From positions 1-4,842 of IMG/VR virus record IMGVR_UViG_2541047166_000009: a stretch of 4,842 nucleotides of DNA. One strand, written 5' to 3'. The notes beneath the pieces were generated by a model. It was given only the letters and a program-made list of their open reading frames with translations, made no database searches and was not told the origin of the DNA. Source of the stretch: a virus (taxonomy: Duplodnaviria; Heunggongvirae; Uroviricota; Caudoviricetes). Shown here piece by piece: positions 4,031 through 4,498 of this stretch. The stretch's first letter is position 1; each line of letters begins with the position of its first letter. The position numbers were made by a program, and so were the translations under genes.

Positions 4031-4044
4031 TCGGGCAAAACGGT

Positions 4045-4072
4045 TTGCTGTAAAGCGAGAGTTAAGTAGAAT
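4045..4072 (+). promoter_or_regulatory. Candidate sigma-70 promoter for the hok/mok mRNA (-35 TTGCTG 4045-4050, 16-nt spacer, -10 TAGAAT 4067-4072)
   Basis: Hexamers read from the sequence. The predicted start near 4077-4080 coincides with the 5' element that is complementary to the 3' end of the locus. Confidence 0.4.
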
Positions 4073-4075
4073 TGC

Positions 4076-4090
4076 TGCGGGTGCTTGAGG
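4076..4090 (+). promoter_or_regulatory. hok mRNA 5' element (tac-like) complementary to the 3' fbi-like element at 4453-4468
   Basis: GCGGGTGC (4077-4084) pairs with GCACCCGC (4460-4467) and TTGAGG (4085-4090) pairs with CCTCAA (4453-4458), giving 14 bp with one bulged C. Confidence 0.5.
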
Positions 4091-4149
4091 CTGTCTGCCT
4101 CGGGCATGCCACCGTAAGGCAGACAGAGAAAAGCCCCAGTTAACATTAC

Positions 4150-4272
4150 GCGTCCTGCAAGACGCTTAACATTAATCTGAGGCCCAATCTATGCTTCACA
4201 AACGTAGGTTAGCCTCTTACGCGCCGAAAGGCAAGGAGAAGCAGGTTATGAAGCAGCAAAAGGCGATGTTAA
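4150..4272 (-). ncRNA. sok: Candidate Sok-like antisense RNA region; boundaries not resolved
   Basis: Expected from hok locus architecture. A weak minus-strand promoter candidate is TTAACA (complement of 4267-4272), 16-nt spacer, CATAAC (complement of 4245-4250). A short hairpin at 4150-4165 could be its 3' end, but no clean U-tract follows. Confidence 0.2.
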
Positions 4273-4403
4273 TCGCCCTGATCGTCATCTGTTTAACCGT
4301 CATAGTGACGGCACTGGTAACGAGGAAAGACCTCTGCGAGGTACGAATCCGAACCGGCCAGACGGAGGTCGCTGTCTTCACAGCTTACGAACCTGAGGAG
4401 TAA
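4191..4403 (+). CDS. mok: Mok-like in-frame N-terminal extension of hok (modulator of killing), 70 aa
   Basis: ATG 4191 with GAGG at 4179-4182. The extension MLHKRRLASYAPKGKEKQV precedes the Hok methionine in the same frame, which resembles chromosomal MokC as I recall it. Confidence 0.55.
   Translation: MLHKRRLASYAPKGKEKQVMKQQKAMLIALIVICLTVIVTALVTRKDLCEVRIRTGQTEVAVFTAYEPEE
4248..4403 (+). CDS. hokD: Hok/Gef-family type I toxin (51 aa), matching HokD/RelF as I recall it
   Basis: MKQQKAMLIALIVICLTVIVTALVTRKDLCEVRIRTGQTEVAVFTAYEPEE has the Hok TM segment and the conserved LCE..IR..G..EVAAF-type periplasmic tail. AAGGAG at 4233-4238, 9 nt before ATG 4248. TAA at 4401-4403. Confidence 0.9.
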   Translation: MKQQKAMLIALIVICLTVIVTALVTRKDLCEVRIRTGQTEVAVFTAYEPEE

Positions 4404-4472
4404 GAGACCAGGCGGGGGAGAAATCCCTCGCCACCGCTGATGTGTCAGGCATCCTCAACGCACCCGCACTTA

Positions 4473-4498
4473 ACCCGCTTCGGCGGGTTTTGTTTTTT
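4473..4498 (+). terminator. Rho-independent terminator of the hok mRNA
   Basis: ACCCGC-TTCG-GCGGGT stem-loop followed by TTTGTTTTTT. Confidence 0.8.

Follow-up and report, generated by a model that had tools for sequence, protein, structure and literature searches.

Organization of the hok/mok/sok locus

The window, which is the whole stretch of 4,842 nucleotides that was analysed, lies within a lambdoid E. coli prophage. Its gene content consisted of replication genes followed by a run of small ORFs of the "nin-region" type. In the matching region of EDL933, DUF968, RusA and the Q antiterminator lay just downstream. The Hok peptide encoded by the ORF at 4248-4403 matched PF01848 with 82.9 bits (cut-off 22), and identical copies of this ORF were named 'type I toxin-antitoxin system toxin HokD' by PGAP, the NCBI pipeline. 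The Rfam family RF01794 covered the leader on the + strand (4079-4253) from end to end and scored 114.9 bits, where the gathering score is 59. RF01794 is labelled "sok", yet it models the sense-strand leader of the hok mRNA. From the promoter to fbi, the DNA was 92% identical to the annotated hokW/mokW/sokW of the Stx phage 933W. The elements of the cassette were as follows.

4044-4072, + strand: putative hok promoter, with a -35-like TTTGCT (4044-4049), a 17-nt spacer and a -10 TAGAAT (4067-4072)
4079-4090, + strand: tac (translational activator element), probably the first 12 nt at the 5' end of the hok mRNA, GGGUGCUUGAGG; placed by the Rfam start and a pairing probability of 0.95-1.0
4083-4105, + strand: metastable 5' hairpin of the nascent RNA, GCUUGAGGC (4083-4091) with GCCUCGGGC (4097-4105), 9 pairs
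4131-4139, + strand: ucb / anti-SD, AAGCCCCAG; its partner is the mok SD in the full-length form or tac in the truncated form
4179-4183 and 4191-4193, + strand: mok SD (GAGGC, 8 nt upstream of the start) and mok start codon
4191-4403, + strand: mok ORF, 70 aa from the ATG at 4191, overlapping hok and in frame with it
4212-4216, + strand: dcb (GCCUC), which pairs with the mok SD when the RNA is open, according to the Rfam consensus structure
4129-4199, - strand: putative Sok-type antisense RNA (~71 nt), with coordinates transferred from the sokW misc_RNA of phage 933W (L001 1590-1660)
4206-4234, - strand: putative sok promoter, with a -35 TTGCCT (4234-4229), a 17-nt spacer and a -10 TAACCT (4211-4206)
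4248-4403, + strand: hok CDS, 51 aa and stop, PF01848 HOK_GEF
4411-4432, + strand: GC-rich 3' hairpin, at which 3' exonucleases presumably halt and which would form the terminal stem of an active mRNA ending near 4434
4453-4465, + strand: fbi (fold-back inhibitory element), CCUCAA-C-GCACCC, with C4459 bulged
4472-4497, + strand: intrinsic terminator, a 7-bp stem with a UUCG loop (4472-4489) and then a U run

On the minus strand, the sequence of the Sok terminator hairpin mirrored the hairpin running from ucb to the mok SD, and a U run followed. The layout of the putative sok promoter matched the TTGCGC-17-TATCCT of the R1-type locus L056. A strict consensus scan of the window gave no match for the hok promoter. 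We also considered AGCCUCUUAC (4211-4220) as ucb. This was rejected, since the Rfam structure and the published description (PMC9841398) give ucb as AAGCCCC (4131-4137), and 4212-4216 is dcb. Over 4407-4493, Rfam gave sub-threshold matches to isrK (27 bits, gathering 50) and rsmX (21 bits, gathering 56). These were set aside as reflecting a generic layout of a hairpin plus a terminator.

The cassette was widespread. Related sequence was carried by 4,722 of 5,426 complete E. coli genomes, at up to nine places per genome, and many STEC strains held copies 100% identical to the window sequence. The hok cassettes were found on chromosomes, plasmids and phages.

Transcript start and extent of the end-to-end complementarity

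The sequence-only reading had reported that 4077-4090 is complementary to 4453-4467 with a single bulge. This was reproduced: the two segments, GCGGGTGCTTGAGG and the reverse complement GCGGGTGCGTTGAGG, formed 14 Watson-Crick pairs with C4459 bulged. The second segment was also correctly placed just ahead of the terminator, whose hairpin (4472-4489) and T run began 7 nt later.

The same reading had put the transcript start near 4077. The predicted 5' end of the RNA did coincide with tac, but its position was shifted by 2 nt. Wherever the 5' end of a homolog was intact, a TAnnnT hexamer occupied one alignment column, 6 nt before an invariant GGG. The Rfam model RF01794 started at 4079, which is 7 nt past the -10 box. 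In the 37-locus alignment described below, conservation of the pairing ended at column 5, which corresponds to 4079. From the conserved -10 box, the Rfam leader model and these limits of conservation, we infer that +1 is G4079. If the mapped +1 of R1 were transferred strictly by position, the start would be 4080, and it is therefore stated as 4079 ± 1.

The revised start affected the length of the helix. The outermost pairs, 4077-4078 with 4466-4467, lay upstream of the likely +1 and formed in 33.8% of homolog cells of the alignment. For these reasons, the helix of 14 bp was not retained as an RNA structure. The RNA helix is 12 bp with a bulged C4459, in which tac (4079-4090) pairs with fbi (4453-4465).

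We then asked how often such a pairing arises in the window by chance. All 13-mers of both strands were compared with the 100 nt located 330-430 nt downstream, which gave 8,804 tests. The mean duplex energy was -8.7 kcal/mol (sd 2.9), and 6 of the 8,804 13-mers reached the observed energy (-21.5 kcal/mol or lower). Three of these six were the tac/fbi site itself in overlapping registers. The other three came from two unrelated sites, at ~1520 on the + strand, where two registers overlapped, and at ~2965 on the - strand. The tac/fbi match was in the extreme tail but it was not unique, and one or two such pairings occur per 4.8 kb without meaning. Since the pairing was not unique in a single sequence, the case must rest on context and conservation. 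What raised tac/fbi above chance was its position at the predicted 5' end of the mRNA and just before the terminator, together with covariation among the homologs.

Conservation and covariation of the helix

The Hok peptide was searched against one genome per species, and 53 loci were obtained. The alignment (A1, n = 37) was built from the 35 of these whose 5' leader was intact, together with phage 933W and the window itself, and spanned Escherichia, Shigella, Kluyvera, Photorhabdus, Pantoea, Citrobacter and phage 933W. The shuffle control for pair counts treated the loci as unrelated, and their kinship was left uncorrected. As the sequence-only reading would predict, the pairing was conserved among homologous loci and showed covariation. 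A tac/fbi helix of 11-12 bp was retained in 35 of the 37 loci, with energies of -18 to -26 kcal/mol in locus-by-locus duplexes. In each of those 35 loci, the fbi site was the best partner of tac inside the interior of its own mRNA.

The inner helix (4079-4084/4460-4465) was paired in 97.7% of the cells of the alignment. RNAalifold, which was given the alignment as its sole input, predicted the same segment as the closing helix. Compensatory changes were seen at several pairs. At 4082/4462, 22 loci had U-A, 11 (Photorhabdus, Pantoea) had C-G and 2 had U-G. At 4090/4453, the G-C of the Escherichia groups was replaced by A-U in Kluyvera and most Photorhabdus. Three states were seen at 4089/4454, namely G-C, a G·U in the hokC group and an A-U in Citrobacter L048. 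The bulged base was C or U in most groups, and the bulge was shifted by 1-2 positions in four loci (L023, L024, L026 and L048). The Photorhabdus helix had no bulge, yet 11-12 bp were kept. For the second half of the helix, one structure string applied to all loci under-counted the pairing (80.5% and 66.5% in two registers), because the bulge was absent in Photorhabdus and shifted in other groups. Per-locus duplexes were used instead.

The type of substitution indicated the strand on which the constraint acts. A G·U pair on the + strand was present in the helix of 13 of the 35 loci, and the reverse case (C·A) was present in one locus. On the opposite strand or in DNA, such a G·U pair would turn into a C·A mismatch, and the constraint therefore acts on the + strand RNA.

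The other pairings of the leader were examined in the same 37 loci. The metastable hairpin (4083-4105) was paired in 96.1% of the cells. Position 4090 of tac also covaried with 4098 in this hairpin (columns 16/24: AU 15, GU 15, GC 7), and this change was coupled to the change in fbi. Such "coupled covariation" is reportedly a signature of alternative pairings described earlier for the hok family (PMC9841398, its references 12 and 30). The ucb/SD helix was 92.7% paired, with compensatory changes at columns 65/105 (AU 24, GC 13), and the 3' hairpin (4411-4432) was 95-98% paired. The tac/ucb pairing (99.2% paired) and the SD/dcb pairing (100% paired) were both invariant and showed zero covariation. 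This invariance is expected for bases with two or three partners, and in itself it is not evidence.

The helix was lost in 2 of the 37 loci, and both were decayed copies. One was L015, which is the gef/hokC type of K-12 whose fbi is cut off by IS186 (PMC3562002). The other was L047, a frameshifted Shigella copy. Further decayed copies in the sample had no tac (L005, L006, L027 and L045).

Folding of the full-length and truncated RNA

The full-length RNA was folded in two versions, one ending at the terminator (4079-4495) and one ending at the foot of the helix (4079-4467). All 12 tac/fbi pairs were present in the MFE and centroid structures of the full-length RNA, each at a probability of 0.949-1.0. 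The z-score of the full-length fold was -6.6 against dinucleotide shuffles. The full-length fold also paired ucb (4133-4139) with the mok SD region (4177-4183). Together, the tac/fbi and ucb/SD pairings make up the published "closed" conformation (PMC9841398). The full-length MFE further paired dcb with 4445-4450. This was regarded as a prediction artefact, as neither the hokC nor the Photorhabdus group conserved the partner. The R1-type locus served as a positive control, and the same folding procedure recovered its established GGCGCUU/AAGCGCC tac/fbi stem.

It had been proposed to compare the folds with and without the last 40 nt. The helix was present in the full-length RNA as expected. However, dropping the last ~40 nt, to 4452, gave no open form, and the 5' end re-paired. 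A substitute 8-bp pairing of 4081-4088 with 4445-4452 was left, and 4452 was discarded as the truncation point. Of the truncations at 4452 and 4434, only the one at 4434 refolded to tac/ucb. In the predicted fold of the RNA ending at 4434, GGG.GCUU (4079-4086) paired with AAGCCCC (4131-4137), and the mok SD was freed from ucb. This is the tac/ucb stem of the Rfam consensus, the "open" form. In the MFE structure of this truncated RNA, the mok SD paired with 4193-4198 and the dcb pairing was absent.

The end at 4434 was chosen by homology. In R1, the truncated translatable mRNA has a terminal stem at G345...C358 (PMC9841398). In the R1-type locus L056, where +1 is at position 293, this stem corresponded to a GC-rich hairpin directly past the stop codon. 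The R1 hok transcripts are 398 and 361 nt long, and these lengths were only partly corroborated by the G345/C358 numbering. The active form in the window was taken to end near 4434, because the hairpin at 4411-4432 is the positional homolog of the R1 G345/C358 stem.

Comparison with known systems

One of the closest known systems is hok/mok/sok (parB) of plasmid R1. The two loci shared the tac at the extreme 5' end, the metastable hairpin, ucb, the mok SD and a sok on the opposite strand, which is putative in the window. The same order continued with dcb, hok, the GC-rich 3' hairpin, fbi and a downstream hairpin. The tac core GCUUGAGGC was common to R1 and the window, and the in-silico switch was the same. 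However, the Hok peptides were only ~43% identical, and the helix was 12 bp with a bulge in the window, whereas the R1 type had a core of 7 bp (GGCGCUU/AAGCGCC) and a few further pairs. The mok frame was in frame with hok in the window and out of frame in R1, the ucb-SD hairpin had a ~20-nt extension unlike that of R1, and the host element was a prophage rather than a plasmid.

The hokW/mokW/sokW of phage 933W and of the Sakai prophage Sp5 was closer still. Besides the 92% identity from promoter to fbi, its tac and fbi sequences were identical to those of the window, and its host was likewise a lambdoid prophage. It differed in its place in the phage genome and in the C-terminal residues of Hok. 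In 933W, the sequence diverged right after fbi and lacked the terminator hairpin of the window. The hokW-sokW of Sp5 is a type I toxin-antitoxin system that is toxic, repressed by sokW and has a role in phage release after mitomycin C (PMC8621323). The authors of that study stated that whether the smaller hokW RNAs equal the truncated form of R1 'needs to be investigated' (PMC8621323).

The chromosomal hokC/gef-sokC (sof) of E. coli had a Hok peptide 82% identical to that of the window, the same leader and a mok in frame. The hokC group (L014-L021) also had the tac/fbi helix with the bulged C. It differed in the G·U at 4089/4454 and had no 20-nt hairpin extension, and in K-12-type strains fbi was cut off by IS186 (L015; PMC3562002). 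There are other type I toxin mRNAs that are locked by long-range or 5'-3' pairing, such as aapA/IsoA of Helicobacter pylori, or activated by processing of an end, such as dinQ and tisB. Their sequences and peptides are unrelated to hok, and the likeness is one of analogy only. They share the logic of an inert and stable primary transcript that is activated by trimming, with an antisense RNA that targets the processed form only (PMC9841398, PMC5066626). In dinQ and tisB, activation is by 5' and not 3' processing.

Interpretation and alternative explanations

The analysis showed that the two segments pair, that this pairing dominates thermodynamically, that it is conserved with covariation and that the RNA switches in silico. 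The best explanation was that the window holds a complete hok/mok/sok-type type I toxin-antitoxin cassette, whose mRNA is locked by tac/fbi until 3' trimming. We put the probability of this reading at about 90%. The identification of the two segments as tac and fbi, which had been made from the letters of the DNA, held up in the PF01848 and RF01794 matches, the helix in the MFE and centroid structures, the compensatory changes in 35 of 37 loci and the blind RNAalifold prediction.

Four other explanations were weighed. The two GC-rich stretches could be unrelated and complementary by chance, with no function. The equally strong pairings at ~1520 (+) and ~2965 (-) meant that the match in a single sequence was not decisive. 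However, the pairing lay exactly at the predicted 5' end of the RNA and just before the terminator, the helix was predicted blind by RNAalifold, and 35 of 37 homologs kept it through compensatory or wobble changes despite moved bulges. Chance was excluded by this covariation, and the probability left for it is negligible. The complementarity could also be an inverted repeat that acts at the DNA level, either as the terminal repeats of a mobile hok cassette or as a recombination site. The homology between lineages did start near the promoter and end right after fbi, so that the repeats were near the borders of the module, and the cassettes were mobile, as seen from their up to nine places per genome and their presence on chromosomes, plasmids and phages. 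In contrast, the helix was asymmetric owing to the bulge and only 12 bp long, and neither target-site duplications nor a transposase was seen. G·U pairs kept the helix in 13 of 35 loci and the reverse occurred in one, and tac covaried with a second partner, the metastable hairpin, which is explicable only by an RNA folding pathway. The G·U asymmetry and the coupled covariation excluded a DNA-level repeat, which we considered highly improbable.

The two remaining explanations accept the RNA pairing and question its role. The locus could be a relic in which the pairing forms but there is no active killer, and the helix merely stabilises a harmless transcript. Chromosomal hokA/B/C were reported to be unable to mediate post-segregational killing (bioRxiv 10.1101/2025.08.07.668861), so the activity of the window copy is not guaranteed, and the sample contained the decayed copies named above (four without tac, L015 without fbi and the frameshifted L047). 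However, all elements were intact in the window, namely the two putative promoters (hok and sok), tac, ucb and the SD, the mok and hok reading frames, the 3' hairpin, fbi and the terminator. Its sequence was 100% identical in many STEC genomes, and hokW-sokW, at 92% identity, has proved toxic, subject to repression by sokW and helpful for the release of Sp5 (PMC8621323). We judged a relic to be unlikely. Alternatively, the end-pairing could primarily protect or define the 3' end, as a block to exonucleases or as the stem of a long-range terminator, with silencing as a by-product. Conservation stopped exactly at the 3' edge of fbi, a T-rich run followed fbi directly in 13 of 35 loci, and the stretch after fbi was U-rich in the R1-type locus as well. 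However, the window had a separate canonical terminator 7 nt later, the folds coupled tac/fbi to the ucb/SD pairing, and R1 genetics link tac/fbi to translational inactivity and to the inaccessibility of the RNA to Sok (PMC9841398). We judged a primary role at the 3' end to be unlikely. A role at the 3' end and translational silencing are not mutually exclusive.

An extension of the translational lock was considered on this basis. The terminator at 4472-4497 was lineage-specific, and 933W and other groups diverged right after fbi. Downstream of fbi, each lineage had a different terminator, or none was obvious (933W). Because the homology ended at the last base of fbi and a U-rich run came next in 13 of 35 loci, the tac/fbi stem may act in those loci as a terminator-like or exonuclease-stop structure. 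The helix may then define or protect the mature 3' end besides serving as the translational lock. In the lineage of the window, the lock may also be two-tiered, with the 12-bp helix and the back-up pairing of 4081-4088 with 4445-4452. Given this 8-bp back-up, activation would need trimming as far as 4434. We offer this extension as a speculative one, with a small chance of being right.

Proposed mechanism

On the favoured reading, that of a tac/fbi-locked hok mRNA, the following course of events is proposed. For the ends of the transcript, its trimming and the biological outcome, this course relies on homology with the hok of plasmid R1 and the hokW of Sp5. The hok mRNA would begin near G4079, and during synthesis tac would at first be held in the metastable hairpin (4083-4105). 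The role of this hairpin in concealing tac during transcription is the one published for R1 (PMC9841398). After synthesis of the 3' UTR, tac would move to fbi (4453-4465), and the RNA of ~390 nt would be closed in a circle-like form. In the closed RNA, ucb (4133-4139) would cover the mok SD (4177-4183), and for this reason neither ribosomes nor Sok RNA would engage the full-length RNA. Slow trimming by 3' exonucleases to the GC-rich hairpin (4411-4432) would remove fbi. The tac segment (4079-4086) would then switch to ucb (4131-4137), and the mok SD and the Sok target would be exposed. The trimmed message may be degraded together with Sok RNA by RNase III. If the labile Sok is gone, it may be translated into the membrane toxin, with Hok synthesis probably coupled to mok translation.

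The mechanism invoked in the sequence-only reading, a fold-back lock that is freed by 3' trimming, is the one published for R1 hok (PMC9841398). In R1, the 3' processing is slow, the truncated mRNA is translatable, the hok-Sok duplex is cleaved by RNase III and killing occurs upon Sok decay (PMC9841398).

Significance of the locus

The tac/fbi end-pairing in the window is an already known, textbook feature of hok, and no new principle is involved. Since the 1990s it has been the feature that defines the regulation of hok mRNAs. The locus itself, nearly a copy of a cassette already annotated and studied, is ubiquitous in E. coli. The value of the finding is mainly that of a quality check, in that a long-range regulatory RNA pairing was recognisable from sequence alone and was confirmed computationally. 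For the prophage, the elements identified here suggested that its hok copy keeps every RNA element needed for delayed activation. The intact elements fit functional rather than decayed prophage-borne hok loci, as in the case of hokW in Sp5.

Structure at codon 47 of hok

A small hairpin within hok lies over the codon for Tyr47. The features are as follows.
4381-4395, small hairpin within hok, with a CAG/CUG stem formed by 4381-4383 and 4393-4395
4386-4388, hok codon 47, TAC (Tyr)

The loop exposed UACG (4386-4389), spanning the Tyr47 codon, and GAA came next. In the 37-locus alignment (35 loci with intact leaders, phage 933W and the window), the stem covaried. The pair at columns 314/328 was CG in 22 loci and UA in 14, and that at columns 315/327 was GC in 24 and AU in 11. 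A motif at which TadA edits A to I, so that Tyr is recoded as Cys, has been described in the hokB, hokC, hokD and hokE mRNAs (bioRxiv 10.1101/2025.08.07.668861). The hairpin over the Tyr47 codon agrees with this motif, which is known biology, and the window's copy of hok carries no annotation for it.

Variation among hok loci

The hairpin that joins ucb, the anti-SD element, to the SD of mok carried an extension in the window.
4143-4168, extension of about 20 nt, ACGCGTCCTGCAAGACGC, with a stem-loop of its own

This extension was found in the hokW/HokD-type, Kluyvera and some further lineages; the hokC, Pseudocitrobacter and Photorhabdus groups lacked it. The extension also lengthened the terminator hairpin of the putative antisense RNA Sok on the opposite strand.

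Several hok copies had decayed so that one side of the lock, the helix between tac at the mRNA 5' end and its 3' partner fbi, was gone. On the tac side, L005 had a deletion within tac, L045 had no leader, and in L006 and L027 the leader was swapped for unrelated upstream sequence, putatively relE-like, as in relBEF-hokD of the Qin prophage. In the case of L015, fbi was replaced (the IS186 case), and in L047 hok was frameshifted and fbi damaged.

Hok peptides 96-100% identical to that of E. coli were also encoded on very short non-enterobacterial contigs, namely Acinetobacter idrijaensis (L017, 275 bp), Xanthomonas pisi (L022, 431 bp) and a contig end of the MAG 'Candidatus Scatousia' (L055). 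These were most likely contamination with E. coli or phage DNA, not genuine hok of those taxa.

The 3' region of the hok transcript

When the RNA was cut at 4452, GUGCUUGA (4081-4088) was predicted to pair with UCAGGCAU (4445-4452), with no switch to ucb. The 4445-4452 partner was not conserved in the hokC and Photorhabdus groups. The predicted pairing may be a lineage-specific back-up, or merely noise.

The hok 3' UTR, with its 3' hairpin, its fbi element and its terminator, was covered by a below-threshold Rfam match to isrK (4412-4493; 27.2 bits, E = 0.006, gathering score 50). The match probably reflects only the common layout of hairpin, spacer and terminator. isrK is an Hfq-binding sRNA.

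A T-rich run, defined as at least 6 T within the 9 nt 3' of fbi, directly followed fbi in 13 of the 35 intact loci; the loci listed for these bases were L014-L021, L023, L028-L031, L033, L039 and L041. In the window's lineage, fbi was followed by GCACTTAAC (contrast region 4466-4474) and then by a distinct terminator hairpin. Phage 933W showed no obvious terminator and no T run 3' of fbi. The last base of fbi was the exact limit of homology between lineages. The long-range tac/fbi helix might help to define the 3' end.
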